This document shows, in pieces, positions 3,799 to 63,985 of a stretch of DNA of 64,000 nt (within the stretch, counting starts at the first letter, position 1; each line of letters opens with the position of its first letter). The notes below the pieces were generated by a model, which was given only the letters and a program-made list of their open reading frames with translations, was not told the DNA's origin and did not search any database. The translations under genes and the position numbers were made by a program. Source of the DNA: a virus; IMG/VR virus record IMGVR_UViG_3300045988_139374, positions 96,001 through 160,000 of that record; one strand, given 5' to 3'.

Positions 3799-3939
3799 TT
3801 AGAATTTAGGTTTTGGCTTTCCCTAAATTCTAAAAATTCCATCTTTTCGTCAACGTTCGTATTTTTTCACATCCATCCGCATTTGTTCCTTTCTGTTTTT
3901 CTCTCGGCTAGTACTCTGGCTAGTCGAGAGTTTTTATGA

Positions 3940-4010: not shown

Positions 4011-4015
4011 TTTAT

Positions 4016-9710: not shown

Positions 9711-9726
9711 CATAGTTATAATATCT
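9711..9726 (-). promoter_or_regulatory. Promoter-like 16-mer AGATATTATAACTATG (site a)
   Basis: Complement of 9711-9726. About 54 nt upstream of the 9657 start and on the same strand as that gene. Confidence 0.45.
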
Positions 9727-9731
9727 TTTTA

Positions 9732-12245: not shown

Positions 12246-12261
12246 CAATATTATAATATCT
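12246..12261 (-). promoter_or_regulatory. Promoter-like 16-mer AGATATTATAATATTG (site b)
   Basis: Complement of 12246-12261. It lies directly downstream of the terminator at 12282-12305 and about 61 nt upstream of the RNase H start. Confidence 0.45.
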
Positions 12262-12281
12262 GATTATAATAAAAATTAAAA

Positions 12282-13922: not shown

Positions 13923-13938
13923 CATATTTATAATATCT
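13923..13938 (-). promoter_or_regulatory. Promoter-like 16-mer AGATATTATAAATATG (site c)
   Basis: Complement of 13923-13938. Directly downstream of the terminator at 13954-13980 and about 55 nt upstream of the 13868 start. Confidence 0.45.
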
Positions 13939-13953
13939 AATTAAAACAAAATT

Positions 13954-18798: not shown

Positions 18799-18911
18799 AC
18801 TACCAATTCCTTTCTTTTTAGAATAATTAATTAGGAGTCGATTTGATTATAAACCTTAAAAATGGCTCAGTGGAACACTAATATAATCAAATCTAAGGAG
18901 GTAGATGATCA

Positions 18912-21900: not shown

Positions 21901-24900
21901 TTCATAAGAAAGACGTTGAAGGAAAATCTGTTCAGGATCTTCTAAATGTGGATACCGCAGAAAAAGAATTGCCTGAAACTAAGTTAAAAGTATCTTCTAT
22001 CAATGACGATTGGCAACATATGACTTTCATGAACTTTGATAAAGATTATGATCCTGATAGTGATATTGTAAAGATGCTCGATGCTATGCAGCATTGGACT
22101 TATCCTATTGCTGTTACAAATGTTAGTGTTAAAGATAATTCTACATCTGAAGACATTGTAAATCTATGGACCATTGAATGTATAGATTATAAGAAAACTA
22201 AGTTTACACTTAAGGTTGATATTCCTAAATTTATCAATGGATCCAACTTCCTAAAACTCCGTGGCAATGAAAAGACACTGATGATTCAATCTGCACTTCT
22301 ACCCATTATCAAAACTGGTTTGGGAGAGTGCCAAATTATTGGTTCTGGCGGATATAACAAGATCTTTGTCAGAAGATTTGGTTCTCGTAAGGGTCAATCT
22401 AATGCCTATGCTAATAAACTCATTAGAGCTATTAGCAAGTATTGTGATAAGCATGATGATATTAAGTATGTAGCTGGTGATAATACTAAGGTTTGTACTA
22501 AATATGAATTGCCTATCGACTATATTGACCTTGCCCAAGTATTTAACTCTATTGAATCTGCTGGTCTAAAGATTTTCTTTAATCAAGATGAACTTAGATC
22601 TGAATATGAAGTGGATGATACTAAGGGCATTCCTATTGGTGTATTTACTCAATTTGATTCTAAGGATAAGACTGGTAAGGATGTAATCATTTACTATGAC
22701 GGAACTTCTAGTCCTACTCTAGCTGGTTATATCACTACTTTGCTATTTTATAGATCTCAGGAGTTTATGGAATTCTATAATAGTCTAAAGATTACTGGTA
22801 CTCGCTGTACTTATTCTAAGGCTAGTATTTTGAATTGTGAGATTCCTGTTATTCTAATTTGCTCTTATCTTGAGGGTCTGATTAAGACCATGAATAAGGC
22901 TGGAATTAAGTATGAATTCGTACAAGAGCTAAATAAGGATATCAAATATAGTACTTATCAGGATTATATTGAATTCTCTGATGGCTATCTTGTATATGAA
23001 GCAAATTACTCTTCTAGCATGCTTATGAATGGTCTTAAGGAAAATGATACTTCTTCTTATTCCATCAAGGATGTAAATAATAGAAGAATGTATCTAGAGT
23101 TCCTTGAGACTTATACTAATAGTCTAAATTCTGATGGTCTAGAAAACTCTTATGACTGTATGATTGATCCTATTACTAAGGAAATTCTTGAGAGATTCAA
23201 GCTTCCTAGTGATTACGTTGGTATTCTAATCCATGCAAGTAATATGCTTGCAGATAATAAGTACATACGTCATATCGATCAAGGTGGTCGTAGATGGCGT
23301 CGTAAAGAACTTATCGCAGGTTACTTCTATAAAGCTCTTACTACTTCTTATCAGGATTATGCTAACCAGAATCGTCATACTCGTAAGAGAACAAAGATGA
23401 CGATTAAGCAATCTGCTGTTATCGATCTAATTGTTTCTAAAGACCCTGCTACCTCTGACCTTTCTATTAACAATGCTCTAAATGACGTTGAATGCTCAAA
23501 CTCTGTTACTAACAAAGGTCTAGTTGGTATGAATGTTGCTCGTGGTTATACTATTGCTACACGTGGATATGATGATTCTATGCTTAATCTATTAGGCATG
23601 GATACTGGATTCTCTGGCAATGTTGGTATTAATCGTCAAGCAACTGTTAATGCTAATATTGAAGGTGGAAGAGGATTTGTTAAAACTATTGATGGTAATA
23701 CAGATAAATTGTCTTCTGCTGCTTCTTTTACTATGACAGAAGCTGTTACTCCTCTTGGTACTACTCATGATGATCCTCCTAGATCTCTGATGACTTATGT
23801 CCAGACTTCTAAGCACATGATTCGTTGTGATAATAACGATCCTACTCTACTTACTACTGGTGCGGATGAAGCATTGCCTTATCTGACTTCTGATATCTTT
23901 GCTTATAAAGCTAAGGAAGATGGTAAGATTGTAGAATTGGTACAAGAAGGTTTTGGTAAGAGAAACTATATCGTTGTAGAATATAAGAGTGGTAAACATG
24001 AATTTATCAATCTTTCTGAAGAGGTTAAGAAAAACTCTGATGGTGGATATTATGTGCCTATGAAACTTGATACAGATATGAGTGTTGGTAAGACTTTCAA
24101 AGCTGGTCAAATTCTTGCATATGATAAGCTATCTTTCTCTAAATCTCTTGGCGAATCTGGTAATCTAGCTGCTAATATGGGCACTCTTGCAAAGATTGCT
24201 ATTATTAATACTGATGAAGGATTCGAAGACTCTGCAATGATTACTGAATCTTTTGCCAATAAACTAGGAACTCAAGTTATTCAAGGAATTGAAACTAGAC
24301 TAGAGAAAGGTTCTAATATTCAGGTTAGTAAATATCTTGGAGATCAAGTTATGGAAGGTGATACTCTATTCACTTTCCAAGCTGACTTTGATGACGAAGC
24401 TATGAATAGCCTGCTCAAGAATCTAGCAATGGATGCTGGTGAAATTTCTGAATTGGGCAGAAATCCTGTTAAATCTAAATATACTGGTATCGTATGTGAT
24501 ATTCAAATCTATCGTACATGCGATATTGATACTTGCTCCGAATCTCTACGTAAATTCATTGGACTTTATGAGAAGAGAGTTAAAGATATCAAAAAAGTAT
24601 ATGATCAGTACGGAATTGATTCTGCCATTCTTCCTAAGACTGGTAAAGTTCCTGAAGTTGGCAAAACTAAAAATCTAGATGATTCTGTTCTAGTAATCTA
24701 TTATATCAAATATACAGATACTATGTCTGCTGGTGATAAGATTACTTTCTATTCTGCAAATAAGGGTATCATTAAGAAGATTATTCCTAAGGATGTAGAA
24801 CCTTATACTGCTTTCAGACCTAATGAGCATATTGATAGTTTCATGTCTCTAAGCTCTATCTCTGGACGTATGACTTGTTCTATTCCTCTATTTGCAGCAA

Positions 24901-24977
24901 CTTCTAAACTTATGGTAGAATTGGATAGATCCGTTAAAGATCTAGCTGGAATTCCTTACGACGAGAGTCAATTGTAA
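18912..24977 (+). CDS. Giant 2021-aa protein: about 1000-aa N-terminal extension fused to a multisubunit RNA polymerase beta-subunit-like region that ends shortly after the GDK...NKG motif
   Basis: AAGGAGG upstream of the ATG. Near residue 1520, SINNALNDV...RGYDDSMLNLLGMDTGFSGNVGINRQ aligns by eye with the E. coli beta segment NNPLSE...[28 protein letters not shown]. Near residue 1940, SAGDKITFYSANKGIIKKIIPKDVEPY...RM aligns with [25 protein letters not shown]...SRM. Confidence 0.75.
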   Translation: MVVLEDLKDLLMYKKQFFLPVNMKDKRHGSAIMLMTPNYQSSMLAMTEPYTLNRRTFESYYIEKTITRYIQQQTESVVEITDPGEYLFEVELTSKERKELDDSEFGIPEQRRYPLNDESHVLAAIRFFNHVEKEYEAELAKNIIKKIKEYDMADKVHVGDGNRFKPYWEKSGLANKSTNESGQIVKSAPDPEEYKKTLINAVKDTLHLKGYKCGIHKDDRWGTDEFINGVNSLYIGRYDDTEIKDVVNQIKAVIGPGYKVCEDDFNTVFIDGPNKAMREFTEDEYFNEFNIKSFISGTAISSANKKMNKDYRLLTFTGYERDINVVQKYIDQEYIKACMAKVKQKMPYDKINIICCGDGSKPEEFTPTSVLVYTPEAFKHAGGKFGYGDYIKYILQLYAVYCIKMPIGSKYERVLDSLAEPAAILFSGVAAKEIAKKTNDDQFTVERVFQYIIDKDGIDTLLKILRYNATAAVMKYAAEYGKIYYPINRSLFVEIAEENEEYLKSLQEDTTIPVPNPMPDSIRKLGNTAERIKRRLKSKTIYKLNKLKRDLEKGTGDSDNPGYTIQSLDVGIPTPSNGSSAPSESFSLSKLNLWSQGDYVNENGFVYLFEDSTKYDMQLRKALYRDRLKNDKAVIQLYKKVKADMPIIRYTFVKMNRYNNRNLFYDLSYYNESFFRNMAMINDSDRKNIMRLFKTYIELMERLLNDDSLSGYSKKTVFIPVLDWRHNNSLKMWMYKEDINPISAIYYYMRNNPKELSKLFGDKDVVFLGAKNYFKVNFAKDDFSKSGNVTKFLNLIKRIVALGYNSPADPDPEGELEDSPKGIAMAIIDKVEQSKNVQINDISKLDNLSNDQNLYNDQPAKASMIPDETAVKKKVVDTAYKVSDDVVTTTYATNVKNKVVKVSVDRKTVTKEENKAATGVSGTKSVNSTSSKEKKDAIVDSVAQAARNSDSVDTAMNKLDDDQQFKDMVNAIQNDDEENVRVDKSQASAVIAKQEEFHKKDVEGKSVQDLLNVDTAEKELPETKLKVSSINDDWQHMTFMNFDKDYDPDSDIVKMLDAMQHWTYPIAVTNVSVKDNSTSEDIVNLWTIECIDYKKTKFTLKVDIPKFINGSNFLKLRGNEKTLMIQSALLPIIKTGLGECQIIGSGGYNKIFVRRFGSRKGQSNAYANKLIRAISKYCDKHDDIKYVAGDNTKVCTKYELPIDYIDLAQVFNSIESAGLKIFFNQDELRSEYEVDDTKGIPIGVFTQFDSKDKTGKDVIIYYDGTSSPTLAGYITTLLFYRSQEFMEFYNSLKITGTRCTYSKASILNCEIPVILICSYLEGLIKTMNKAGIKYEFVQELNKDIKYSTYQDYIEFSDGYLVYEANYSSSMLMNGLKENDTSSYSIKDVNNRRMYLEFLETYTNSLNSDGLENSYDCMIDPITKEILERFKLPSDYVGILIHASNMLADNKYIRHIDQGGRRWRRKELIAGYFYKALTTSYQDYANQNRHTRKRTKMTIKQSAVIDLIVSKDPATSDLSINNALNDVECSNSVTNKGLVGMNVARGYTIATRGYDDSMLNLLGMDTGFSGNVGINRQATVNANIEGGRGFVKTIDGNTDKLSSAASFTMTEAVTPLGTTHDDPPRSLMTYVQTSKHMIRCDNNDPTLLTTGADEALPYLTSDIFAYKAKEDGKIVELVQEGFGKRNYIVVEYKSGKHEFINLSEEVKKNSDGGYYVPMKLDTDMSVGKTFKAGQILAYDKLSFSKSLGESGNLAANMGTLAKIAIINTDEGFEDSAMITESFANKLGTQVIQGIETRLEKGSNIQVSKYLGDQVMEGDTLFTFQADFDDEAMNSLLKNLAMDAGEISELGRNPVKSKYTGIVCDIQIYRTCDIDTCSESLRKFIGLYEKRVKDIKKVYDQYGIDSAILPKTGKVPEVGKTKNLDDSVLVIYYIKYTDTMSAGDKITFYSANKGIIKKIIPKDVEPYTAFRPNEHIDSFMSLSSISGRMTCSIPLFAATSKLMVELDRSVKDLAGIPYDESQL

Positions 24978-28177: not shown

Positions 28178-28193
28178 CACTATTATAATATCT
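28178..28193 (-). promoter_or_regulatory. Promoter-like 16-mer AGATATTATAATAGTG (site d)
   Basis: Complement of 28178-28193. About 59 nt upstream of the 28119 start, at the head of the leftward 28119-25024 cassette. Confidence 0.45.
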
Positions 28194-28257
28194 AATTAAA
28201 ATAAAATATTTAATGGTATAAAATCAACTAAACTATAATGAGTGAGAGGGTTTAATT

Positions 28258-36324: not shown

Positions 36325-36453
36325 ATGTGTCCTGAAAAGTCTACCGATGCAAAGTATTCTGTTATCACTGAACAGGGTGATCTGGGTCTTGGCGCAGATG
36401 TTCTGTCTGATGACGATCAGAAGATTGTCGAAGAGTCTACAGATAAGCAGTAA
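36325..36453 (+). CDS. 42-aa acidic micro-protein (MCPEKSTDAKYSVITEQGDLGLGADVLSDDDQKIVEESTDKQ)
   Basis: Not in the ORF track (under 60 aa). AAGGAGG lies 8 nt upstream of the ATG. It has its own terminator at 36464-36491 and GC-richer codons (CTG, GGC, CAG). Confidence 0.6.
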   Translation: MCPEKSTDAKYSVITEQGDLGLGADVLSDDDQKIVEESTDKQ

Positions 36454-37502: not shown

Positions 37503-38654
37503 ATGGAAGATAATAATATTGTAATTGGATCTTTCTGCTCCACTGCAGAAAAAGATACATATGTTTATCCTAAAGAGATTCCTGGATATATAGCTCCTGA
37601 ACCTCAGATTCTGAAAGAAGATAATCAACGGTTCAATTTCATTTATACTCCTATTGAATATTCAATTGGATATAACCTAGATGGTGGTGAAATTGATGTT
37701 GATCTAAAATCTTCGTATACTATAGAAGATGATACCTATACACCTCCTATTCCTACAAGAAAAGATTTTGTATTCAATGGGTGGGAACCTAAATCTATTC
37801 CTGCTGGAACTATTGGAGATATTAATTTTACTGCCACTTGGAAATCTCTTCCGATTCTTAAAACTGGTACTGAACTTAATAAGATCTTTGAAACTATTGC
37901 TGGCAGTAAAGATAATATTCTAGGATTTAGAATTGTAGATTATATTAATAACTGTGTAGATGTATCTTCTACTATTACTCCTATTTATGCATCTTATGAT
38001 GACGGAATTATCAATCTTGCTTGTGAAGATGCAATTCATTGCAATGATGATATGAGTCATGCTTTTGAAGGTTTTTCTTCTCTCTACGATATTAGTTGCT
38101 TCTCTTACTTTATTGCAGCTAATGGAATGAATTGCAATTCAATGTTTAAAGATTGTATTGCTCTCTCAGATGTCCAATCTGTGGAGTATTGGAATAATGA
38201 TAAAACATTTGGTGATATTACTGATGCTTTCCTGAATACTAGTGCACTTGATGCTAATAGAACTCCTAATTGGTATATTTGGAATGTAAATATCAAATAT
38301 ATCTCTTCTTCTGGAAAGATTCTAAAAGATACTCATGTAAATAAGAAACCTGGAGAAATTGTATATCCTATTAGTATTGATGGATATAAATGCAATACTA
38401 ATTCTATTATCATAGATTCTTATGATAATATTTATACATTTATCTATACTCCTATTGAATATGAGATTAGATATAGTCTAGACAATGGAGTGCTTCCTTT
38501 TGCTAAAACTAATTATAATATTGAAGAGGAAGATTTCTATCCTGCTAAGCCTGTAAAGGATGGATATACTTTTACCAATTGGGATCCTGAATATATTCCT
38601 TCTGGTAGTACAGGTAATTATAATTTCATTGCAAATTATGCACCAAATAATTAA
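37503..38654 (+). CDS. Adhesin-like protein: two Listeria-Bacteroides-type repeats flanking a BspA-type LRR-like segment
   Basis: YSIGYNLDGGE...RKDFVFNGWEPKSIPAGTIGDINFTATWK and YEIRYSLDNG...KDGYTFTNWDPEYIPSGSTGNYNFIANY. Middle segment FEGFSSLYDIS...MFKDCIALSDV. SD GGAGGG within the end of the previous gene. Confidence 0.6.
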   Translation: MEDNNIVIGSFCSTAEKDTYVYPKEIPGYIAPEPQILKEDNQRFNFIYTPIEYSIGYNLDGGEIDVDLKSSYTIEDDTYTPPIPTRKDFVFNGWEPKSIPAGTIGDINFTATWKSLPILKTGTELNKIFETIAGSKDNILGFRIVDYINNCVDVSSTITPIYASYDDGIINLACEDAIHCNDDMSHAFEGFSSLYDISCFSYFIAANGMNCNSMFKDCIALSDVQSVEYWNNDKTFGDITDAFLNTSALDANRTPNWYIWNVNIKYISSSGKILKDTHVNKKPGEIVYPISIDGYKCNTNSIIIDSYDNIYTFIYTPIEYEIRYSLDNGVLPFAKTNYNIEEEDFYPAKPVKDGYTFTNWDPEYIPSGSTGNYNFIANYAPNN

Positions 38655-38675
38655 AATAAAGGAGAGAAATAATCA

Positions 38676-39830
38676 ATGGATTCTAAGATTGAAAATCTAA
38701 TTAGTGATATTGAGAAACTCCGTGATCTTTCTACTTCAAAATCTGCTGTAGAAAATATTAGAAAAGATCTGAATCTCATTATTACTACTGGCAAGTGTAG
38801 AGAATTCATCTATACAAATAATATAGATAAGCTTCCTTTTGGATGTATTGTTTTTCCTACTTTTGCAGACTTTGATATCAATGCTTTCTTTATTGCTGGA
38901 GAGCCTTGTAAGGTTGGAGAATATAAGTGTGAAATTGATTCTAAGATGTTTGATTACGGTCTGACAAATGAAGAAGTAGCACAGATTATTCTATTTAATG
39001 CTTATCATATGACTGCTGACTCTAGACCTTCTGAAGTTGTTAGAGAGCATATTGATATTTTCTTTACTAAAGAAAATACTCAGCTGATTATTAGAGATTG
39101 TGTTCAGTATAAAACTATTCTATCCTTTGGTCTAGCTGATGCTTTGTCTACGGTTACTTCTTGCTTCGCTCTTCCTGATGATGTAGAAGCAGATGCTTAT
39201 CTATCTTCTCTTGGATTTGCAGAAGGTTCTTTTAAGATTGGTATAGATAAGCTGTTTCAAGAAATGCTTGGATGTGAAAATGAAGTTAAGCGTCAGGTTA
39301 ATCTGTCTATGCTTGATTGGTCTCTGAGACTATATTGCAACGTAGACTCTGAACGTCCTGCTGCAATTCATCTTCTTTCTAAGTGTAAAGATATTACTGC
39401 TTCTATTCTATACATTAAGAAAGTTGAATCTGTTATCAATTCTCTAAATAGAATTGATACTGACGCTTATATCACAGAAGCTGTAAATCAAATCTTTACA
39501 GAATCTAAGAAGAATGGTGGATTCCTGGGATATCTAAAATATTCTGGACTTAGAGATGTAGAGAATGATCTCTATGAATTCCAAGTCAGAGCAAAGAATG
39601 CAGAATCTGAACAAGATGTGCTATATGCTCTAAAGCAGATTAATGCTAGACTTACTATTCTATCTGACTACATCCGTGAAAATCGTAATGATCCTGATAT
39701 TGATCATTGGATTGCAGTCAAGGAAGAATATGAAGATCTTCGTATGATTCTTGCTAAGAAGAATCTACATAAGAGAGCTTATGGCATCTTTGTTGATTAC
39801 GATGCTCTCGATAATTATGAAGAATTTTAA
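38676..39830 (+). CDS. Hypothetical protein
   Basis: ORF track; AAAGGAGAGAAA upstream. Confidence 0.7.
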   Translation: MDSKIENLISDIEKLRDLSTSKSAVENIRKDLNLIITTGKCREFIYTNNIDKLPFGCIVFPTFADFDINAFFIAGEPCKVGEYKCEIDSKMFDYGLTNEEVAQIILFNAYHMTADSRPSEVVREHIDIFFTKENTQLIIRDCVQYKTILSFGLADALSTVTSCFALPDDVEADAYLSSLGFAEGSFKIGIDKLFQEMLGCENEVKRQVNLSMLDWSLRLYCNVDSERPAAIHLLSKCKDITASILYIKKVESVINSLNRIDTDAYITEAVNQIFTESKKNGGFLGYLKYSGLRDVENDLYEFQVRAKNAESEQDVLYALKQINARLTILSDYIRENRNDPDIDHWIAVKEEYEDLRMILAKKNLHKRAYGIFVDYDALDNYEEF

Positions 39831-39843
39831 TTAAAATAAATAA

Positions 39844-39874
39844 AATCCTCTATGGTTTTATGCCATAGAGGATT
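39844..39874 (+). terminator. Intrinsic terminator
   Basis: Stem AATCCTCTATGG/CCATAGAGGATT followed by ATTTTT. Confidence 0.75.
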
Positions 39875-39912
39875 ATTTTTCTATTTATTAACATTTGTTC
39901 ATAATTTGTTAA

Positions 39913-40280
39913 CAAATTTTGTCAAAAATACCCTATTTTTGGCAAAGTAAACTTTTTTTCAGATAGATATTTTAATAGTGTAATTTATTTAAAATTAAAA
40001 TTAATGATTATTAATAATAAAAAAGATTTATATGTTTATATATTAACTATGATTATACTACTTATATACTATGATTCGTCTTAATTCCTAAACTGATATT
40101 ATACTATTCCTCAAGCAAAAAATGATTCTATTGATAATATTGACCCTTGTTCTAAAATGATTAATCTATTTAATAATCGTTCCTTAGTATAGTAGATTGA
40201 TCTTATAAGCATAAGATCAATCTACACATTTACACTATCAAAATAACTGTGGAGGAATTTAAAAAGTTTCACTTTTTAAG
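39913..40280 (+). repeat. Non-coding repeat unit A (box 1 ...TGGCAAAGTAAA...; promoter-like box; 15-bp hairpin; box 2 plus hairpin)
   Basis: Box 1 lies around 39920-40020, a perfect 15-bp hairpin at 40192-40225, box 2 AAAATAACTGTGGAGGAATTT at 40240-40260, and a hairpin at 40259-40279. Confidence 0.7.
39965..39980 (+). promoter_or_regulatory. Promoter-like 16-mer variant AGATATTTTAATAGTG
   Basis: 15/16 identical to site d (AGATATTATAATAGTG). Rightward orientation. Confidence 0.4.
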
Positions 40281-40282
40281 AT

Positions 40283-40530
40283 TTTTCAAAAAACCCTTAA
40301 AAATGGCAAAGTAAAAAAATTTTTCAGACATATATTTTAATATTGTATATATTAAAATTAAAATAATCTTGTTAATTTTAATGATGATTATTAAGTAATA
40401 TCTCACTTATTCTAATTAAGATAATACTTATCTTAAAGAAACAACAAATAATGAATATACTAGTATATCCATATTAAAATAACTACGGGGGAATTTATAA
40501 AGTTTCACTTTATAAAAATTCTTCTTAAAA
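40283..40530 (+). repeat. Non-coding repeat unit B (degenerate copy of unit A)
   Basis: Blocks shared with unit A: TCAAAAA, CCCT, TGGCAAAGTAAA, TTTTTCAGA, ATATTTTAATA, TTAAAATTAAAA, ATGATTATTAA. Box 2 AAAATAACTACGGGGGAATTT at 40476-40496 and a hairpin at 40494-40516. Confidence 0.7.
40330..40345 (+). promoter_or_regulatory. Promoter-like 16-mer variant ATATATTTTAATATTG
   Basis: Occupies the same position within unit B as 39965-39980 does in unit A. Close to site b (AGATATTATAATATTG). Confidence 0.35.
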
Positions 40531-40589
40531 ATAAGAAAAACTTCAAAATAATTATTTTTATAATCTCAAAATAAAGGAGAGAAAGAAGA

Positions 40590-41360
40590 ATGATTTTAGA
40601 AGATAATCAAATAAAAGAATTATTAGAAAAAATAAAAGATCTAGAAATTAAAAATAGTACTAAGAGCAATTATTCTATTGATGATAAAAGAGTTCCTAGG
40701 GTAACAGAAATATTATCTGCAATGATGCATGAAGACAATCTAATGAATTGGGCTAATGGTTTAGGATGGAAAAGAATATCCTATAGAGCATTTATGAAAG
40801 ATGCTCAAGATAAAGGAACTTATTCACATTTAGCAATAGAAATATTCTTAAGACAAGGAAGAATTGATCTAGATACAGATTTACAAATTCCTAATCAAAA
40901 AATTAGAGATACTGTAGAATCTTGTTTAGACGGTTTCATTCAATGGTGGGATGAATTACATAAACTTCATAAAAATATTAAATTAATCTATCTAGAAGAA
41001 ACTATGATCAATGAATATTTTGGAGGAACATGTGATTGTTTACTTCAAGTAGATGGAGAATATTGGTTATTAGACTTTAAGACTTCTAATCATATGAATT
41101 ATAAATATTCTCTACAATTAGCAGCATATCGATATCTTTTAAAAAATACAAAGAATATTAATATTTCTAAATGTATGATTTTAAGATTAGATAAACTAAA
41201 TCATTTTTATGAAACTCAAGAATTTAATCTTAGCAATAAAGATCATCTAAACTATATTGAAAATTGTGAGCAAACATTTATGATTCTTTTAACAGCATTT
41301 AAGATGAGAATGTATACTAATCTTCAATATCAAGAAATTACTAATTTAAACAAAAAATAA
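40590..41360 (+). CDS. PD-(D/E)XK family exonuclease (Cas4/RecB/YqaJ-like)
   Basis: AAAGGAGAGAAAG upstream. Motifs GTYSHLAIE, GGTCDCLL, WLLDFKTS and QLAAYRYLL appear in the canonical order. Confidence 0.65.
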   Translation: MILEDNQIKELLEKIKDLEIKNSTKSNYSIDDKRVPRVTEILSAMMHEDNLMNWANGLGWKRISYRAFMKDAQDKGTYSHLAIEIFLRQGRIDLDTDLQIPNQKIRDTVESCLDGFIQWWDELHKLHKNIKLIYLEETMINEYFGGTCDCLLQVDGEYWLLDFKTSNHMNYKYSLQLAAYRYLLKNTKNINISKCMILRLDKLNHFYETQEFNLSNKDHLNYIENCEQTFMILLTAFKMRMYTNLQYQEITNLNKK

Positions 41361-41364
41361 TAAC

Positions 41365-41391
41365 ATGGAGTACTACGACGTAGTACTCCAT
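41365..41391 (+). terminator. Intrinsic terminator
   Basis: Stem ATGGAGTACTAC/GTAGTACTCCAT followed by TATTTTTT. Confidence 0.7.
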
Positions 41392-41454
41392 TATTTTTTC
41401 ATTATATAAAAAACTTTCTTAGTAATCATATCTATTTTGGAAGGAGTAGAAAAT

Positions 41455-42024
41455 ATGAATCTTGATATTATTAGTATTATTCGGTCATGCAACACATTGC
41501 ATGAATTGAAGGAAGAATTCAAAAAACCTTTCGGTTGGTTTAGATTCATATCTAAAAATAAAGCTAAAAAATTAGAAGATAAACTAGATTCTACTATTAA
41601 AACTATCCTGTCTAAAGATGAATGGGATGTACAATATCTTTATGATCTAGAAAGAGCAATCTTTCTTTTTTATAATAATCTAAAAGATTATATGGTAAAT
41701 GTAACAATTCCTTCTTATAATCCAAATGATAAATACAATCCTAAGAATTTTATTCCTATCTATTTTTATGATAAAATTAAAGATAGAAATATTATTGTAG
41801 AGATTGTATCTACTAATATCATATTTACAGTATTTGATAATACTACAGGAAAGAGTATTGTTATTTCTACTTCAGAATCTGTATCTAAGTCTCAAGAGAA
41901 AGTAGAAAATCAATGTAAAGAAATTCTAATAGATTTCTTTCTTAATTATCTTCATGAATATAAAATTCCAGAAGAAGAAAAAGCAATTACTCTAGCAAAT
42001 AAAATCAATGGAAAAAATAATTAA
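41455..42024 (+). CDS. Hypothetical protein
   Basis: Track ORF 41437..42024. The ATG at 41455 follows GGAAGGAG. Confidence 0.65.
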   Translation: MNLDIISIIRSCNTLHELKEEFKKPFGWFRFISKNKAKKLEDKLDSTIKTILSKDEWDVQYLYDLERAIFLFYNNLKDYMVNVTIPSYNPNDKYNPKNFIPIYFYDKIKDRNIIVEIVSTNIIFTVFDNTTGKSIVISTSESVSKSQEKVENQCKEILIDFFLNYLHEYKIPEEEKAITLANKINGKNN

Positions 42025-42116
42025 AACTATGATGAGATATATATTATTATCTCAAGATAATAATATCTAACTTTTTTATTTTATTTTTTAAATATTTAGA
42101 AGGAAGGTGATAAATT

Positions 42117-43731: not shown

Positions 43732-44889
43732 ATGACTATTGAAGAAGAAATTGCTCAATATAAGCTCAAAGATCAAATCGATAAAGGAACTCTTATCACA
43801 GCACATATCTCCGATCTCCATTTTCCAGTAATGGATCCATATAAGCAATATAGTATTCTAGAGGATCAATTTCTTCAGAAAATAAAAAAGATGCCTAGAC
43901 TAGATCTAGTTTGTGTAAATGGAGATTTATTTGATCACAAAGTTCAGACCTCATCAGATGCTACTTTATATGCATCTATGTTTGTTGGAAGATTAGTAGA
44001 AATTTGTAGATCTCATAATGCTACTTTGATTATTCTTCAAGGTACTATGTCTCATGATTCTAATCAAATTAAAATCTATTATCACTATATGCAGAGAAAA
44101 GATGTCGATGTAAGAATAGTGACTAATATTAGATTTGAAATGGTTAAGAATGCTAGAATTCTTTGCATTCCTGAATTATATGGTGTTCCAGAAGAATACT
44201 ATCAGCATATTTTATTTGGATCTGACTTTTATGATTTGTGTATCATGCATGGTACAATTCATGGAGCAGTATATGGTGATACTGTCGGAAATGGAAGATT
44301 ATTCCATATTGAAGATTTCTTAAATTGTAAAGGTCCTATCATTTCTGGTCATATTCATAAGCCTGGAACATTTAATGATCATTTCTATTATTGCGGATCT
44401 CCATATAGATGGAGGTTCGATGACGATCATGAAAAAGGTTTTATATTAATGACTTATAATCTTAATACAAGATATTATTATCTTGATTATGAAAAGATTA
44501 TTTCAGACACTTATAAAACTATTTATCTTGATCAATTGATTAATAATGATCCAGTAGAAACCATTAACTATATTAAGAATCTAAAACAGACTCAAGGAAT
44601 TGATTATATTAGAATTAAATTCAATAGACCAATTCCAGGGGCTAGTAAAATGGCACTTAATGATTCTTTTAGACTTGATGATTCTGTTACGTTAGAATTC
44701 TATTCTCAGGAATTAGAAATTGCTAAACAAGCAGAGCAGCAAATCAAAGAAGATAATGAAAAAGTGGCATTTTTGTTAGATCCGAAGTTGACAGATGAAC
44801 AGAAATTTGTATTATGGGTTAATTATCTTAAACAAGATGAAACCTATCTTACAGTAGAAGAATTAGAAGCGTTATTGAAGAAGGAATGA
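43732..44889 (+). CDS. sbcD: Mre11/SbcD-like metallophosphoesterase nuclease
   Basis: Track ORF 43684..44889. The ATG at 43732 follows AAAGGA. Calcineurin-like motifs appear in order: HISDLHF, NGDLFDH, QGTMSHD, IMHGTIHG, SGHIHKP. Confidence 0.7.
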   Translation: MTIEEEIAQYKLKDQIDKGTLITAHISDLHFPVMDPYKQYSILEDQFLQKIKKMPRLDLVCVNGDLFDHKVQTSSDATLYASMFVGRLVEICRSHNATLIILQGTMSHDSNQIKIYYHYMQRKDVDVRIVTNIRFEMVKNARILCIPELYGVPEEYYQHILFGSDFYDLCIMHGTIHGAVYGDTVGNGRLFHIEDFLNCKGPIISGHIHKPGTFNDHFYYCGSPYRWRFDDDHEKGFILMTYNLNTRYYYLDYEKIISDTYKTIYLDQLINNDPVETINYIKNLKQTQGIDYIRIKFNRPIPGASKMALNDSFRLDDSVTLEFYSQELEIAKQAEQQIKEDNEKVAFLLDPKLTDEQKFVLWVNYLKQDETYLTVEELEALLKKE

Positions 44890-49505: not shown

Positions 49506-49557
49506 ATTATCACTCCTTTTATATATGAGTTTTTAAGCGCTAAAAATACCCATAAGT

Positions 49558-49573
49558 AGATATTATAAATATG
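49558..49573 (+). promoter_or_regulatory. Promoter-like 16-mer AGATATTATAAATATG (site e)
   Basis: Identical to site c. Lies 43 nt upstream of the ATG at 49616, on the same strand. Confidence 0.45.
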
Positions 49574-53696: not shown

Positions 53697-53777
53697 GTAT
53701 AGATTTACACCTCCTGCAACATAAAAATACTGATTATGATTGTGCCTAATTTTCGTTTGCTAAAATGAAAATTGAGC

Positions 53778-53793
53778 ATATATTATAATAATG
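53778..53793 (+). promoter_or_regulatory. Promoter-like 16-mer variant ATATATTATAATAATG
   Basis: 15/16 match to AGATATTATAAnnnTG. Lies 92 nt upstream of the ATG at 53885. Confidence 0.35.
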
Positions 53794-53884: not shown

Positions 53885-54775
53885 ATGATGAACAACATGT
53901 ATCCGAATGGTTATGCAATGCCCATGGGTGCTGGCTATCCTCAGCCCGCTGCACAGCAGACCGGTGGTAACACTAACTGGCTGAGTCCTGATAAGGTCGC
54001 TCGTCTGAAGAAGGATAATACTCAGTTTTCTCTGAGTGTTTCTGATGAAGAGCTTCTGCGTGGCCAGTGCAATCATTATAACTCTGATCGTACCTCTGCT
54101 CTGGTTGAGAATCCTGATGGTAGTTATACTTGCTCTATCTGCGGTACTACTTTCAATGTTCATACTGGTACTACTGAAGATGTCAAGACTGCAGTTCAGC
54201 TGGTTCTGGATTATATGAACACCTGCAAAACTAGCTATCTGTCTCTGAGCCCTGATGCTGCTCTGACCTATTTCCAGATTATTCCGTTCCTGGAGAAGTT
54301 CCCTGGCCTGTATGATCTGGCTATTAAGGATTATGCAAAGCATAATAACATCAATCCGATGCAGGCTCAGAATGGTATGAACACTTTTGCAATGTATGCA
54401 AATCTGATCAACAGCCCGATGTATGCTCAGCCTGGTATGATGGGTGGTATGCCGATGGGTGGTTATCCCCAGCAGCCTTATGCTTATGGTGCTCCTGTCC
54501 AGCAGCCTGTCATGAACACCAATATGCCTCAGCAGCCTGGTTATAATCCGATGTATGCTCAGCCCATGCAGCCTGCAGCTCCTGTCCAGCAGCCTGTTGC
54601 TCAGACTGGTTATCAGCCTGCACAGACCGGTTATGCATTCAACCCTCAGGGTCCTGCACAGCCGATCAATACTAATATGCCTCAGCAGCCTGCTCCTGCA
54701 GCAGCTCCTCAGGCACCTGCTGCTCAGCCTGCAGTTACCGAAGCAGTAAAGGTTCCTGAAACTTTCCAGAAGTAA
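53885..54775 (+). CDS. Low-complexity (M/P/Q/Y/G/A-rich) protein with a central folded domain; GC-rich codon usage
   Basis: AAAGGAG upstream of ATGATG. N-terminus MMNNMYPNGYAMPMGAGYPQPAAQQ. The C-terminal 130 or so residues are repeats of the QP/MP/YAQP type. The central part includes CNHY...CSICG. Confidence 0.75.
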   Translation: MMNNMYPNGYAMPMGAGYPQPAAQQTGGNTNWLSPDKVARLKKDNTQFSLSVSDEELLRGQCNHYNSDRTSALVENPDGSYTCSICGTTFNVHTGTTEDVKTAVQLVLDYMNTCKTSYLSLSPDAALTYFQIIPFLEKFPGLYDLAIKDYAKHNNINPMQAQNGMNTFAMYANLINSPMYAQPGMMGGMPMGGYPQQPYAYGAPVQQPVMNTNMPQQPGYNPMYAQPMQPAAPVQQPVAQTGYQPAQTGYAFNPQGPAQPINTNMPQQPAPAAAPQAPAAQPAVTEAVKVPETFQK

Positions 54776-54825
54776 TTTCTAAGTAAAGTTCATATAGCAA
54801 CAATCGCATCGTCATAATAAATATT

Positions 54826-54853
54826 GGAGTGGAGGATTCATGTCCTCCACTCC
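54826..54853 (+). terminator. Intrinsic terminator
   Basis: Stem GGAGTGGAGGA/TCCTCCACTCC followed by TTTATTTATTATTTTT. Confidence 0.8.
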
Positions 54854-55062
54854 TTTATTTATTATTTTTAATACTAATAGATTATAGAACAATCATTTAC
54901 CAAAATATAAAATTTGGTAAATGATCTTATGTAGAACTCAACAATAATCCGAAATTGGGTATCCAAGGAAAGATTATTTTCATATAAAGCAAAATTAATT
55001 TTTTAATGAACATGTACACATAATTATGAGAAAAAGAATCTAGAGAAAGGAAAAGACTGAGA

Positions 55063-56253
55063 ATGATTAAGAATAATATCAATTGTGAAGATATGCCTTA
55101 TGAAGCTATCGATGTTATGAGTGATCATAACTACGTAGATTATATGGGCAAAACAATTGGTAATGCTTATGTGCTAGGAAAAACTACTCCACATGTAAAA
55201 CCAGATGGTAGTATAAAAATTAGATATCTTTGCAAGTGTAATCTTTGTGGTAAAAAGTTTATTGCTTATAGAGATGCCCTTACAAATCATATTAAAGGAA
55301 AATATATTCGTCCTTTATCTTGCGGATGTGATATAGAAAGAAAGCCTATTACTTCAGGAGAGAAAATTGGTAAACTTACAGTAGAAAGATTAATAAAAGA
55401 TGGAAAATCTTCAGAAGATAGATTCTGGATTTGTAAATGTGAATGTGGACGAGAAGTTGAAAAGAGAGAAAGCAATCTTTTAAATAGAACAATTAAAGAT
55501 TGTGGAATGTGCGGTAAAATTAAATCTGTACATGAGCCATATAAAGTAGGACAAAAACTTGGAATGCTTACAATCCGAGAAGTGCATAATGCTGGAATTG
55601 TAAGTACAGAATATTATATTTGTGATTGTGACTGCGGTACAAAAGGAGTTGTAAAGAAATATACCCAGCTTAATTATAAAGATGCATCTTTAAATTGTGG
55701 ATGTGTTAATGTTCAAAAAATGAAGAACCTTCATGATAAAACTAGAAAGCATGGTTTATCTGATACTAGAATTTATAATACGTATAAAGATATGATTAGA
55801 CGCTGTTATTGTAAAACAGATGATCATTATAAAGATTATGGTGGCAGAGGTATTTATGTTTGCGACGAATGGCAGAAGAAAGATAATTATAGTGGGTTAA
55901 AAGCGTTTGTTGATTGGGCATATAAAAATGGATATAATGATAATTTGTATATTGATCGTATTGATGTAAATGGCCCATATTCTCCTAGTAATTGTAGATG
56001 GGTATCAATGATTATTCAAGCAAATAATAAAAGAGATAGCGTATATATCACCGCTAATGGAGAAACATATACATTAGCGCAATGGGAAGCAGCTTCTGGC
56101 ATTAATCAAAATACTATTAGAAGAAGGTGTGAAAAAGGATATGATCCTCATACTGCAGTATATACTCCTACACCTACAAACCATGATTGTGTAAATGCAA
56201 TCTATTTTGTAGATGAGTATAATAATCCTATAAGTCAATTCGATAAAGAATAA
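55063..56253 (+). CDS. Zn-ribbon-repeat protein with homing-endonuclease-like (HNH_3/AP2-type) C-terminal module (tentative)
   Basis: GAAAGGAAAAG upstream. Three N-terminal repeats of the type G.K[IL]G...V...C.C.CG. C-terminus YKDYGGRGIYVCDEW ... YIDRIDVNGPYSPSNCRW ... QANNKR. AT-richer codon style than its neighbours. Confidence 0.4.
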   Translation: MIKNNINCEDMPYEAIDVMSDHNYVDYMGKTIGNAYVLGKTTPHVKPDGSIKIRYLCKCNLCGKKFIAYRDALTNHIKGKYIRPLSCGCDIERKPITSGEKIGKLTVERLIKDGKSSEDRFWICKCECGREVEKRESNLLNRTIKDCGMCGKIKSVHEPYKVGQKLGMLTIREVHNAGIVSTEYYICDCDCGTKGVVKKYTQLNYKDASLNCGCVNVQKMKNLHDKTRKHGLSDTRIYNTYKDMIRRCYCKTDDHYKDYGGRGIYVCDEWQKKDNYSGLKAFVDWAYKNGYNDNLYIDRIDVNGPYSPSNCRWVSMIIQANNKRDSVYITANGETYTLAQWEAASGINQNTIRRRCEKGYDPHTAVYTPTPTNHDCVNAIYFVDEYNNPISQFDKE

Positions 56254-62977: not shown

Positions 62978-63967
62978 ATGACAAATGTAGAGATGATCTT
63001 AAAATTAATGGAACCAGAGCTCGATACTATTCAACTAGCTAAATTGAAGAACGTGCTTGACACAATCTTAAGAACATCAAGAAACGTCCTACCAAATGAA
63101 GAATTGATAGAACGATTCAAACAACAGAAGAGCTTAGTAGGATTGAAACCATCTTCATTAAATGGATATGTAACAGAGGTTAGAGCAATGGCAAGATACT
63201 ATAATGATAAAAGCTATTGCGATATTACTACTGCTGATATGAAGGATTATCTTGCTTATATGGTTAAAGCAAGAAATCTTCAAGCTGCTACATTACAGAC
63301 TAAGATTAGAGCTATTAGCTCTTTCTATGAATTCTTAGTAAATGAAGAATTTATTGATAAGAATCCTACTAATAAGATTGAAAGAGTCTTGTGTGAAAAG
63401 AAGATCAAGAAAGCTTTCTCTAATGCTGAGATGGATGCTATGAGAGCAGAATGCTTAACAAAGAGAGATAGAGCATTCTTTGAGTTCCTTTATTCTACTG
63501 GAACTAGACTTGCAGAAGTCATTGCCCTTAATGTAAAGGATATCAATTTCTCAGAAGGAGAAGTTATTGTCTTCGGTAAAGGACATAAGGAAAGAGTTGT
63601 TTATCTAAGTAACATTTGCATGAAATATTTACAAGAATACTTAGAAGAACGATATGCTCAACCAGATGAACCTTTATTTACACACTTGACAAATGGTCAT
63701 AGATTGACTCCTAGAGCAGCAGAATTAATTCTTAAAGATATTGGCGATAGAGTAGGAGTAGAAAATGTGCATCCTCACCGATTCCGTAGAACTTGTGCTA
63801 CTCACTTGATGGACAGAGGAATGCCTGTTGAACAGATTCGAGAAGTACTCGGTCACGCCAAGTTAGAGACTACTATGATTTATTGTAATGTGAATAGCAG
63901 TAAAGTTAAAGCTAGTTTTAAAGAAGCATTTAATAGAGATACATATTTTAATGATGTAAATATTTGA
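62978..63967 (+). CDS. Tyrosine site-specific recombinase (XerC/XerD/phage integrase family)
   Basis: YSTGTRLAEVIAL (catalytic Arg), HPHRFRRTCATHL (H-x-x-R), LGHAKLETTMIYCNV (catalytic Tyr). N-terminal SAM-like core-binding domain. Confidence 0.85.
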   Translation: MTNVEMILKLMEPELDTIQLAKLKNVLDTILRTSRNVLPNEELIERFKQQKSLVGLKPSSLNGYVTEVRAMARYYNDKSYCDITTADMKDYLAYMVKARNLQAATLQTKIRAISSFYEFLVNEEFIDKNPTNKIERVLCEKKIKKAFSNAEMDAMRAECLTKRDRAFFEFLYSTGTRLAEVIALNVKDINFSEGEVIVFGKGHKERVVYLSNICMKYLQEYLEERYAQPDEPLFTHLTNGHRLTPRAAELILKDIGDRVGVENVHPHRFRRTCATHLMDRGMPVEQIREVLGHAKLETTMIYCNVNSSKVKASFKEAFNRDTYFNDVNI

Positions 63968-63969
63968 TT

Positions 63970-63985
63970 AGATATTATAACTCTG
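63970..63985 (+). promoter_or_regulatory. Promoter-like 16-mer AGATATTATAACTCTG (site f)
   Basis: Lies 3 nt after the recombinase stop codon. The downstream gene is outside the window. Confidence 0.35.

Follow-up and report, generated by a model that had tools for sequence, protein, structure and literature searches.

In the window, the 64,000-nt stretch of viral DNA analysed here, positions 39831-40589 are non-coding and hold two tandem units, A and B, with common ordered blocks (Table 1). Both units lie on the + strand, between a terminator (or the other unit) and the gene for a PD-(D/E)XK/Cas4-like exonuclease, the first gene of the replication-recombination block that these cassettes serve. 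The terminator of the upstream gene forms the left boundary of the control region. Its loop is inverted in the relative L002, and it and the terminator after the exonuclease gene are the only two intrinsic terminators listed in a scan around the locus. A 2021-aa protein with matches to RNA polymerase beta subunit families is encoded elsewhere in the window. The 760-bp gap has no coding potential: none of its small ORFs is kept in relatives, where the frame is shifted or the ORF is lost. A preliminary description of this DNA had called the gap the largest ORF-free stretch, and among ORFs of at least 90 aa lying whole inside the window it is indeed the longest interval; every element named in that description was located where it had been placed.

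Table 1. Features of the control region and of the gene that follows it, in window coordinates
Feature	Position	Strand	Remarks
Intrinsic terminator of upstream 384-aa gene	39844-39874	both strands score	12-13 pairs, 5 G-C; T-runs on either side
Near-perfect palindrome TTTGTCAAAAATA-CCC-TATTTTTGGCAAA	39918-39946		13-nt arms, 92% complementary; unique in window, 0.07 expected
AAGTAAA box, unit A	39945-39951	+	invariant in every unit; 16 nt upstream of TATTTT, at about -35
Conserved TTCA, unit A	39959-39962		at about -20
Putative promoter core ATAGATATTTTAATAGTG, unit A	39963-39980	+	2 mismatches to the TTAGATATTATAA-N3-TG family
Leader A	39981-40232	+	G-poor, AT-rich; sequence unrelated to other unit types
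Perfect 15-bp hairpin, 4-nt loop	40192-40225	+	-19.6 kcal/mol, z -7.5; no U-tract after it
Inverted core, unit A	40233-40248	-	reads TATTTTGATAGTG, with AGT before it; 19 nt, 89% complementary
GGAGG Shine-Dalgarno look-alike, unit A	40251-40255	+	AAG at the usual ATG position
Hairpin TTAAAAAGT/TTC/ACTTTTTAA, unit A	40259-40279	+	G.U pairs can extend it over GGAGG and the downstream U-run in + strand RNA
Block 1, unit B	40282-40347	+	AAGTAAA box 40309-40315; putative promoter core 40328-40345
Leader B	40346-40468	+	homologous solely to the leader of the third-locus unit (vs L012, z 5.6)
Inverted core, unit B	40469-40484	-	reads TATTTTAATATGG
GGGGG Shine-Dalgarno look-alike, unit B	40487-40491	+	hairpin 40494-40516 is next
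Hairpin, unit B	40494-40516	+	loop TTC; z -4.8 on +, -1.7 on -
Real ribosome-binding site AAAGGAGAG	GGAG 40576-40579	+	precedes exonuclease ATG at 40590
PD-(D/E)XK/Cas4-like exonuclease gene, with ribosome-binding site	40576-41360	+	ATG at 40590
Intrinsic terminator after exonuclease gene	41365-41391		scores as a terminator

The DNA matched nothing among GenBank phages, a protein search with the upstream gene was likewise without a match, and Rfam models run over 38500-42000 at a permissive E-value gave best scores of at most 23.2 bits (E of at least 2.9), far under gathering scores. A retron- or DGR-like element was dismissed, the YxDD reverse-transcriptase motif occurring in no window ORF of at least 150 aa.

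Each unit opens with a block of promoter-like sequence (block 1). The preliminary description had pointed to promoter-like 16-mers, and these were found at 39965-39980 and 40330-40345 as part of a recurrent, gene-oriented intergenic motif; block 1 belongs to the resulting window-wide family of putative promoters, TTAGATATTATAA-N3-TG. The generic motif TTAGATATTATAANNNTG is present in three exact copies and several more with one or two mismatches, nearly all intergenic and all but one facing the downstream gene; with up to three mismatches allowed there are 32 matches against 18.6 expected, a number equalled by none of 100 shuffles. The unit B core has four mismatches to the family by our own reading. 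In the 64 kb, TGGCAAAGTAAA has exactly two occurrences (39940 and 40304), and a TTGrCm hexamer lies 23-24 nt from TATTTT in the cassette units. Transcription is predicted to start at G39980 in unit A and G40345 in unit B. Independent support for start-site prediction from the motif comes from its other copies, since RNA beginning at the final G folds into a hairpin starting at +1 at six of seven generic sites; no +1 hairpin was found in units A and B (-0.7 kcal/mol in the first, no 5'-terminal stem in the second). A further point against the best reading is that the TATAAT of the generic motif is replaced by TTTAAT in the cassette core. Sites resembling sigma-70 promoters are not in excess of shuffles (15 vs 17.0), and sigma-54, Bacteroidetes-type and MotA-type promoters fitted poorly on inspection by eye. 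Profiles of blocks 1 and 2 run with nhmmer recovered no extra copy within the window, and a scan of a genome collection with the block 1 pattern gave chance matches over unrelated phyla. Just upstream, the palindrome at 39918-39946, centred about 48 bp before the predicted unit A start, is found in the primary unit types (unit A, L003/L004 and L159; L numbers designate relatives), not in unit B or the third-locus copy described below, and could be bound by a dimeric regulator.

In layout the motif matches the early promoter of the AR9 virion RNA polymerase, AAATATATATTAT-(6N)-G+1, which that polymerase reportedly reads with no tolerance of single changes (PMC5312081). The motif here, TTAGATATTAT-AAnnnT-G, has the same TATTwT-6N-G arrangement, a likeness of layout only. 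Also shared with the AR9/phiKZ group are an extended, AT-rich and highly conserved motif with a G start 6 nt downstream, phage-encoded multisubunit RNA polymerases and, as in phiKZ-like early promoters, conservation at about -10, -20 and -30 (PMC11512511). The cassette differs in having TATTTT for TATTAT and in its own AAGTAAA box.

The leaders that follow are strongly depleted in G (7.8% over the 270 nt measured for leader A, to 40250, and 5.7% over the 141 nt measured for leader B, to 40486, vs 16.7% in the window). Comparison of leader interiors detected no similarity between unit types save that of leader B to L012. What survives of the two-unit repeat layout proposed earlier is the set of ordered blocks common to both units, and not a simple tandem duplication, the leaders (270 and 141 nt) having no detectable similarity; the region contains three direct-repeat families of two copies each (34, 28 and 49 nt; 76-89% identity). 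Hairpins within leaders recur: L003/L004 have one of equal size at the equivalent of 40192-40225 and L159 a 12-bp hairpin in mid-leader, all three unrelated in sequence, and in L002 and L282 the stem at 40192-40225 is kept and the loop varies. This hairpin may be an RNase III-type processing site. Two smaller elements of the preliminary description fared differently. The palindrome at 40455-40468 is present as described and conserved; the 9-bp hairpin at 40416-40436 is present but not conserved, being lost in strain L282, where some 65 nt of the leader B interior (about 40370-40437) have been swapped for unrelated sequence. Such replacement has taken place between strains whose exonuclease proteins are identical. 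An inversion was considered for L282 and rejected, as the replacement sequence is not inverted.

The leaders end in a second conserved block (block 2), in which AAAATAACTnnGGrGGAATTTA occurs at 40240 and 40476 (0.04 expected in shuffles). After the GGAGG or GGGGG, every unit type reads AATTTAwAArG, and none of ATG, GTG and TTG is found within 4-12 nt; after what looks like a Shine-Dalgarno site and its spacer, AAG or AGG stands in place of ATG. A pattern scan of metagenomes illustrates the resemblance, at least about 110 unrelated ordinary ribosome-binding sites reading GGAGGAATTTAnAATG, that is, with ATG, and true cassette copies in the loose form of the scan numbering two among the matches listed.

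A hairpin follows the Shine-Dalgarno look-alike in 8/8 variants, and it covaries. The compensatory A-T/T-A change between the hairpins of the two units, on which the preliminary description had based its case for selection, is real; relatives add an A-T to G-C double change, and covariance analysis across them strengthens the argument. In the hairpin alignment (A1), 89.6% of cells pair, vs 43-54% when partners are slid; five pairs have changes on both sides, and the observed covariation score was reached in none of 500 shuffles. L012 keeps a 14-bp hairpin of different sequence; that of L159, also different, has 13 bp with a single G.U pair and an ACA loop. Compensatory and G.U changes favour the + strand, which folds better than the - strand in six of the eight variants. 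The stems have one or two G-C pairs, and they fail criteria that the real terminators of this phage pass. This hairpin is not a terminator, because a U-tract follows it in unit A alone and is missing from five of the six unit types.

Directly before block 2 lies a copy of the promoter core in inverted orientation, without the upstream half of the promoter motif. Folding predicts a long-range RNA helix between core and inverted copy, with three double changes. It was set aside as the primary reading because the predicted start falls downstream of its 5' arm, wobble pairing in the + strand cannot accommodate its mismatches and the permutation test was not significant: arm matching within a unit does not significantly exceed that across units (22/120 permutations).

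Comparison with relatives shows the units to be portable cassettes, since a third unit (L012) occupies an unrelated locus in sister genomes of 95% identity and distant relatives have one unit and none at the two loci. The third unit is flanked by a terminator on one side and, on the other, by the ribosome-binding site of an RNA-polymerase-subunit operon; its hairpin ends 8 nt before that site, and the unit is missing at the equivalent locus in genomes of 73% identity. At the exonuclease locus there are two units in the window, L001 and L002, and one in L003, L004, L155-L158 and L159; the cassette is thus polymorphic in copy number. Two Logan contigs each break at AGTAAAC of block 1. At both loci a terminator precedes the cassette and the first gene of an operon follows it. 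Where exonuclease identity is 57-63%, relatives retain a long AT-rich gap in this position and have no recognisable cassette, so the conserved function of the locus could be something that the cassette merely accompanies. An identical locus was found in a human-gut metagenome, the sister genomes encode a 597-aa RNA polymerase subunit with the motif GADYDGD, and the cassette is confined to a lineage of human-gut jumbo phages with multisubunit RNA polymerases of their own. The host phylum may be Gram-positive, to judge solely by the strength of the GGAGG ribosome sites.

These observations are read here, with moderate confidence, as tandem promoters of the phage whose long leaders finish with a stabiliser or processing element working at the RNA level. 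Among the three roles offered in the preliminary description (an iteron origin, tandem promoters with structured leaders and small RNA genes), the motif family and the placement between terminator and first gene at both loci favour the second. Five parts can be read from the sequence with consistent order: a putative promoter of the phage's own, with -10-like TATTTTAA, TTCA near -20, AAGTAAA near -35 and G 6 nt after TATTTT; a G-poor, AT-rich leader of about 125-255 nt, free to change in sequence, with one strong hairpin in the long versions; the inverted copy of the promoter core; the GGAGG/GGGGG look-alike without a start codon; and a hairpin that would act in the + strand RNA. Transcription from about G39980 and about G40345 would run into the exonuclease/replication operon; with both starts feeding that operon, the cassettes would act as tandem promoters. 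We infer both the polymerase that would read them and the role of the inverted core, whose recurrence before block 2 the model leaves unexplained.

The module at the 3' end of the leader most likely works post-transcriptionally. Known 5' stabilisers of Gram-positive bacteria lengthen mRNA half-life and lie near the mature 5' end; they include the STAB-SD of Bacillus thuringiensis cryIIIA (attributed to Agaisse and Lereclus, 1996) and, from the early RNA of phage SP82, a polypurine 5' stabiliser (reportedly described by Hue, Cohen and Bechhofer, 1995). The SP82 element belongs to a phage early region and is situated just downstream of a hairpin cleaved by RNase III. The cassette resembles both in having a perfect Shine-Dalgarno-like sequence, complementary to the 3' end of 16S rRNA, in a long 5' leader without a start codon, which in sequence terms would qualify it. 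In unit A, moreover, the 15-bp hairpin stands 26 nt before GGAGG, in parallel with SP82; the classical STAB-SD definition does not include an adjacent covarying hairpin. By analogy, a stabiliser role is suggested in which, after cleavage at the strong upstream hairpin, the start-less site would hold a 30S subunit and the 5' part of the mRNA would be protected, or its limit set, by the neighbouring hairpin. The conserved ends of the cassette may double as recombination handles, which would explain the differences in copy number and the swapped leader interiors.

Recombination of this kind is described for the PeSL (promoter-early stem-loop) cassettes of T4-type phages, which are some 100 bp long, occur about 50 times per genome and have -35/-10 boxes of the sigma-70 type with a G/C-rich stem-loop, at or beside the promoter, that terminates transcription (PMC2839356, PMC4122927). 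PeSLs and the units described here are both repeated intergenic cassettes of promoter and stem-loop that end at a Shine-Dalgarno sequence before early genes, and both offer patches of homology through which insertions, deletions and replacements could arise between close relatives; presence or absence, copy-number change and replacement of the interior were all seen here, with one to three copies only. The cassette differs from PeSLs in this low number, its length of 200-370 bp, its phage-specific promoter, the long variable leader, the inverted core and the start-less Shine-Dalgarno site. Sigma-70 boxes at 16-18 nt spacing do not occur in it, and its hairpin lies 300 or 175 nt past the promoter without terminator features, a separate gene terminator preceding block 1.

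Each unit might instead be a small non-coding RNA gene, of about 300 and 175 nt, starting in block 1, ending at or just past the block 2 hairpin by weak termination or processing, and acting in trans, for example via GGRGG or the variable interior. The order of promoter, non-coding stretch and conserved hairpin would suit such genes, as would AUUUUUC after the unit A hairpin and the fact that unit A is followed by another unit and no gene. The jumbo phage 201phi2-1 also makes small RNAs from 5'UTRs by premature termination, with ends at mapped termination sites (PMC11512511); there, as here from a predicted start, a structured 5' UTR element lies within 250 nt and is conserved in position among relatives, but the cassette lacks the terminator features. 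The tails after the hairpin are A-rich, not U-rich, in five of the six unit types, and the weak, AT-rich stems do not score as the phage's real terminators do. Both facts weaken this role, although RNA processing could still yield such ends. The third-locus hairpin, moreover, ends 8 nt ahead of a ribosome-binding site, the interior that would supply target specificity is freely replaced and, within the window, no complementary target stands out (blastn-short with both units gave noise only). Small RNA genes are accordingly regarded as unlikely.

A regulatory module of an undescribed type is given a similarly small chance. In it the core and its inverted copy would bracket a hypervariable, G-depleted leader, either as convergent promoters of a sense/antisense switch or as a structure formed solely in read-through RNA or single-stranded DNA; the output would be the start-less ribosome site and the hairpin, and the interior would be exchanged between strains, possibly under host-defence pressure.

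A more specific proposal built on the inverted core, and a doubtful one, is that it is a convergent promoter with - strand starts near 40233 and 40469, the counter-transcript spanning the leader and modulating read-through or the stability of the sense RNA. Antisense control of this sort is familiar from ColE1 RNA I/RNA II and, as attenuation by a counter-transcript, from pT181/pIP501. TATTTT-6N-G is preserved on the - strand arms of 5/5 unit types, and the 18-nt core of L003 is the same in both orientations, but these arms have no upstream half of the motif, their AAGTAAA-like box being 22-27 nt off and not 16. The strong hairpins of the leaders are 8-9 nt away from where the - strand RNA would start, the terminator before the cassettes is bidirectional and the leaders have more C than G on the + strand, the reverse of every other transcribed strand in the window. 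Since the block 2 hairpin is not a terminator, there is no attenuator on which a counter-transcript could act.

Equally improbable is a replication origin, in which transcription from promoters next to it would activate or prime an AT-rich unwinding region with hairpins. Transcription-primed origins include the T7 primary origin and T4 oriF/oriG, and that of T7 consists of tandem promoters with AT-rich DNA after them, much as found here. The 1-kb bin at 40001-41000, which holds most of the region, has the lowest G+C of the window (22.5%); the exonuclease, helicase and topoisomerase block lies directly downstream; and in distant relatives the gap at this place is still long, AT-rich and hairpin-rich despite sequence turnover. 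The iteron-based origin of the preliminary description was not supported, as there are two-copy families and trivial AT-rich tandem repeats in place of iteron arrays. Cumulative GC skew has no inflection at 40 kb, rising steadily over 35-64 kb, with its minimum at about 18-19 kb, where gene orientation flips; in some genomes the cassette also stands before the RNA-polymerase operon, where close relatives lack it. A stable R-loop is disfavoured because the leader RNA is G-poor, and covariation with G.U pairs points to RNA as the working form of the hairpin.

The units could finally be mobile or invertible DNA, with regulation secondary: a MITE-like element whose boundaries are composite inverted repeats, or an inverton, a segment flipped by a site-specific recombinase. 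Inverted repeats of 16-21 nt flank every leader, unit-specific variants are common to both arms (G/C in unit A, A/T in L012), presence and copy number are polymorphic, the interior is variable and a tyrosine recombinase is encoded in the window at 62978-63967. Conserved sequence nevertheless runs 45-50 nt beyond the inverted repeats on both sides, there are only one to three copies per genome and the arms within a unit match no better than those of different units by the permutation test above. For a MITE, no target-site duplication can be defined, the empty site in L152/L153 being too diverged; for an inverton, the leader is collinear in 13/13 relatives' assemblies that span at least one whole unit, the opposite orientation is found in none and the L282 replacement is no inversion. 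In the Correia/NEMIS-type MITEs of Neisseria the inverted repeats are at the very ends of the element, with TA duplications. The EGeRS1 regions of pLS20-family plasmids are 400-750 bp long, GC-rich and block read-through (PMC8708921). Like the cassette, both kinds are repeated, structured and non-coding, occur dispersed ahead of operons in a mobile genome and have inverted repeats, and some have promoters or are processed as RNA; neither has sequence or detailed anatomy in common with it. Mobile or invertible DNA is judged improbable.

The cassette is a genuine, lineage-specific feature, though one of a largely familiar type, and none of the evidence marks it as an origin or a small-RNA gene. 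Almost nothing is known of gene control in uncultivated gut jumbo phages with their own RNA polymerases, and the promoter motif with its predicted start could guide the annotation of transcription units throughout this group of phages. Its compact assembly of promoter, decoy ribosome site and hairpin may provide expression parts that can be tested with reporters. The PeSL idea is extended past T4-like phages by this example of regulatory DNA, which moves and is exchanged among near-identical phage genomes, and the inverted promoter core, if functional, would add a new regulatory layout.

The overall picture drawn in the preliminary description, a non-coding gap holding two repeat units (A and B), is confirmed. 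Bounded by the stop codon that ends a 384-aa gene and the ATG of an exonuclease gene, positions 39831-40589 form the longest gap between ORFs of at least 90 aa lying whole within the window, and comparison with relatives reveals no conserved ORF in it. Every motif reported there is present at its position, among them the perfect 15-bp hairpin at 40192-40225 (folding -19.6 kcal/mol, z -7.5). TGGCAAAGTAAA occurs exactly twice in the 64 kb, the 22-nt block AAAATAACTnnGGrGGAATTTA twice against 0.04 expected, and a repeat search recovered three ordered two-copy families across the gap. Each unit is a cassette of fixed order: promoter-like block 1, a variable leader, an inverted promoter core, and block 2.

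Positions of the gap borders, repeat families, inverted core and promoter-like motif copies
Feature	Position	Strand or orientation	Remark
Terminator of 384-aa gene	39844-39874		left side of gap
PD-(D/E)XK exonuclease gene	ATG at 40590		right side of gap
Repeat family 1	39918-39951/40282-40315		repeat search
Repeat family 2	39955-39982/40320-40347		repeat search
Repeat family 3	40236-40284/40472-40520		repeat search
Inverted core pair, unit A	39968-39983 with 40233-40248	reverse complement	
TTAGATATTATAA-N3-TG copy	9711-9728	-	intergenic
TTAGATATTATAA-N3-TG copy	12246-12263	-	intergenic
TTAGATATTATAA-N3-TG copy	13923-13940	-	intergenic
TTAGATATTATAA-N3-TG copy	28178-28195	-	intergenic
TTAGATATTATAA-N3-TG copy	49556-49573	+	intergenic
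TTAGATATTATAA-N3-TG copy	53776-53793	+	intergenic
TTAGATATTATAA-N3-TG copy	63968-63985	+	intergenic

To judge by its sequence, block 2 consists of what looks like a ribosome site lacking a start codon, with an RNA hairpin after it. Every cassette has AAG or AGG in place of ATG, and none places ATG, GTG or TTG at initiation distance from the Shine-Dalgarno look-alike; the unrelated matches (at least about 110) in a loose metagenome pattern scan read GGAGGAATTTAnAATG, an ordinary ribosome site with a start codon. The hairpin is present in all eight sequence variants (-6 to -15 kcal/mol). Aligning seven sequences gives 89.6% paired cells, compared with 43-54% once partners are slid, and none of 500 shuffles reaches the observed covariation score; both-sided changes occur in five pairs, two in the hairpin (A-U to U-A, A-U to G-C) and three in the long-range repeat. 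The stem is lengthened to 14 bp in the related contig L012, while L159, from a separate lineage, has a different 13-bp stem with one G.U pair and loop ACA. Two observations point to a hairpin acting as + strand RNA: G.U pairs occur in L003 (a 73%-identical relative), L159 and unit A, and the + strand folds better in six of the eight variants. Its loop varies (UUC, UUUC, CUUUCA, ACA), which speaks against recognition by a loop-reading protein such as lambda N with boxB, and an intrinsic terminator is ruled out by a U-tract confined to unit A. Small-RNA genes, another proposal of the preliminary description, would have a precedent in the 5'UTR-derived small RNAs of jumbo phages (PMC11512511), but terminator features are absent from the units and we regard this reading as unlikely.

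Block 1 is best read as a promoter of the phage's own type, and of the roles first proposed, tandem promoters are the one favoured. Both unit cores, AGATATTTTAATAGTG and ATATATTTTAATATTG, are variant copies of a motif that recurs in the window, TTAGATATTATAA-N3-TG. It has three exact copies and several with one or two mismatches; allowing up to three gives 32 matches where 18.6 are expected, a total reached in none of 100 shuffles. The good copies (those tabulated, except 53776-53793) are intergenic and oriented toward the next gene, and two sit directly 3' of a terminator, abutting it and thus leaving no space for another promoter. In six of seven generic sites, RNA from the motif's final G is predicted to fold into a hairpin starting exactly at +1, which independently supports that G as the start site; the motif looks like a promoter class whose transcripts would bear a protective 5'-terminal stem-loop. 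Early promoters of the AR9 virion polymerase, AAATATATATTAT-(6N)-G+1 (PMC5312081), share the layout of TATTAT-6N-G in the generic motif, and phiKZ-like early promoters are conserved at about -10, -20 and -30 (PMC11512511), likewise the case here, where the invariant cassette positions are TATTTTAA (about -12 to -5), TTCA (-21 to -18) and AAGTAAA (-35 to -29). From the motif family, the +1 hairpins, this shared layout and the invariant positions, transcription starts are predicted at G39980 and G40345. Three caveats attach to the promoter reading: TATAAT of the generic motif is replaced by TTTAAT in the cassette core, folding finds no +1 hairpin in the cassettes, and a sigma-70 scan gave hits no more numerous than in shuffles.

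A palindrome at 39918-39946 (centre about -48), carried by the primary units and unique in the window, is a candidate regulator site. Separately, the 13-mer CCTTAAAAATGGC, perhaps a regulator site common to two loci, lies at the junction of units A and B (40296-40308) and recurs within 18840-18871, about 40 nt 5' of the ATG of a 2021-aa RNA polymerase gene. Two further promoter-like copies, at 42053-42070(-) and 44468-44485(+), sit inside near-palindromes (CAAGATAATAATATCTAA, CAAGATATTATTATCTTG), the former pointing antisense into the + strand gene 41437-42024.

The promoter core, from TATTTT through the start (16-21 nt), recurs reverse-complemented directly before block 2 in every unit type; 18 nt are identical in L003, and some variants specific to a unit appear in both arms (G/C for unit A, A/T for L012 and, for L159, a 21-nt extension). 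Were the 5' arm transcribed, a closing helix would be predicted by folding. An RNA helix is nevertheless not the reading preferred, as the predicted start falls downstream of the 5' arm, the mismatches are not wobble-compatible on the + strand, and a permutation of within- versus cross-unit matching is not significant (22/120). Possibly the inverted core is a second site for the binder of the promoter core, pairs only in read-through RNA, or serves in recombination or inversion. It may also be a convergent promoter, albeit one that lacks the motif's upstream half. An antisense switch built on such a promoter is quite improbable.

The unit is a portable cassette. Both units are kept in two 95%-identical genomes (L001 and L002), whereas a single one stands at the exonuclease locus in 73%-identical L003, L004 and L155-L158 and in L159. 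Scanning for the pattern also turned up a third unit, at another place in the two genomes closest to the window, running from a terminator through block 1, a 140-nt leader and block 2 (14-bp hairpin) to a ribosome site serving the first gene of an operon with a beta-prime-like subunit; at that locus the 73% relatives lack a unit, and their intergenic region measures just 70 nt. The copy number is thus either 1 or 3, and presence or absence is polymorphic. Block 1 is also where two independent Logan contigs stop, both at AGTAAAC, as expected for a dispersed repeat. Relatives with 57-63% exonuclease identity retain a long AT-rich, hairpin-rich gap 5' of the gene with no recognisable block 1 or block 2. 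A replication origin, also proposed at first, would suit this positional conservation in distant relatives, the AT-richness of the gap and the adjoining replication genes; however, repeat searches found no iterons, GC skew shows no inflection and the second cassette locus is dispensable, leaving an origin with little probability. At 59-62% exonuclease identity, the equivalent gap of one contig (L141, 3290-4010) holds its own tandem repeat pair of about 130 nt each, nearly G-free and ending in a G-rich patch (GGGTGGGGAAG or GCTGGGGAGCC); another (L143, 3731-4010) has a hairpin of about 32 bp, with a reverse-transcriptase (RVT_1) gene 3.5 kb upstream.

Cassette ends are conserved and interiors exchangeable. 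Leaders are G-poor (5.7-7.8% G versus 16.7% for the window; C exceeds G), and only unit B and the third-locus unit have leaders that resemble each other (z 5.6); between all other unit types similarity is absent in both orientations. Strain L282, whose exonuclease protein is identical to the window's, has some 65 nt of leader B swapped for unrelated sequence, and the 9-bp hairpin 40416-40436 is lost with them; comparison rules out an inversion. Long leaders carry one strong hairpin each, unrelated in sequence, near the 3' end in unit A and L003/L004 (15 bp) and mid-leader in L159 (12 bp). None of 13 relatives' assemblies spanning at least one whole unit has an inverted leader allele; that the unit is a MITE or inverton seems hardly probable.

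The source is an uncultivated gut jumbo phage encoding its own multisubunit RNA polymerases, as gene content, the contig sizes of its relatives (IMG/VR, 160-260 kb) and an identical copy of the locus in a human-gut metagenome attest; a DNA search of GenBank phages gave no match to the region. G+C is about 31%, and ribosome sites are strong and GGAGG-type. Residues 650-2010 of the 2021-aa ORF (18912-24977) match phage RNA polymerase beta subunit families (E 1.8e-134), and sister genomes encode a separate 597-aa protein (L012 1820-3613) with GADYDGD, which we take to be the beta-prime catalytic motif; it is likely that the phage has at least two polymerases. The window also encodes DnaB-like and Dda-like helicases, topoisomerase II subunits, an HNH endonuclease and a tyrosine recombinase.

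Other features of the window deserve mention. Three phage tRNA genes (Gly-TCC, Gln-TTG, Thr-TGT; 3723-4104) lie inside a 636-bp non-coding stretch. The HNH gene (55063-56253), directly 5' of the topoisomerase II large-subunit gene, comes after a segment of locally high G+C (42.9% over 54001-55000); together (53885-56253) they may be a homing-endonuclease insertion. The tyrosine recombinase/integrase-family gene (62978-63967; PHROG 1, E 4.9e-53), with an exact promoter motif directly 3', sits in an otherwise lytic-looking replication region. A 265-bp gap contains a 42-aa ORF (36325-36453), probably a real small gene; its ribosome site, AAGGAGGTAATTTATTATG, is strong and a terminator-like hairpin comes after it. 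The 7-nt terminator loop at 39856-39862 is TTTTATG in the window and L001 and its reverse complement, CATAAAA, in L002 (~5260); the stems being identical, close strains thus differ by a flip of the hairpin loop.

As tandem promoters, the two cassettes would drive the exonuclease/replication operon. The GGRGG-plus-hairpin module would act on RNA, most plausibly as a 5' stabiliser or a processing-defined 5' end, on the logic of STAB-SD and the SP82 polypurine stabiliser, the latter of which sits after an RNase III site. The conserved ends may serve as recombination handles, as in the PeSL cassettes of T4-type phages (PMC2839356). The cassette fails the tests that define a PeSL, an intrinsic terminator, an iteron origin or an Rfam family; it is best filed with phage promoter-leader cassettes, as a real, selected and lineage-specific regulatory element.
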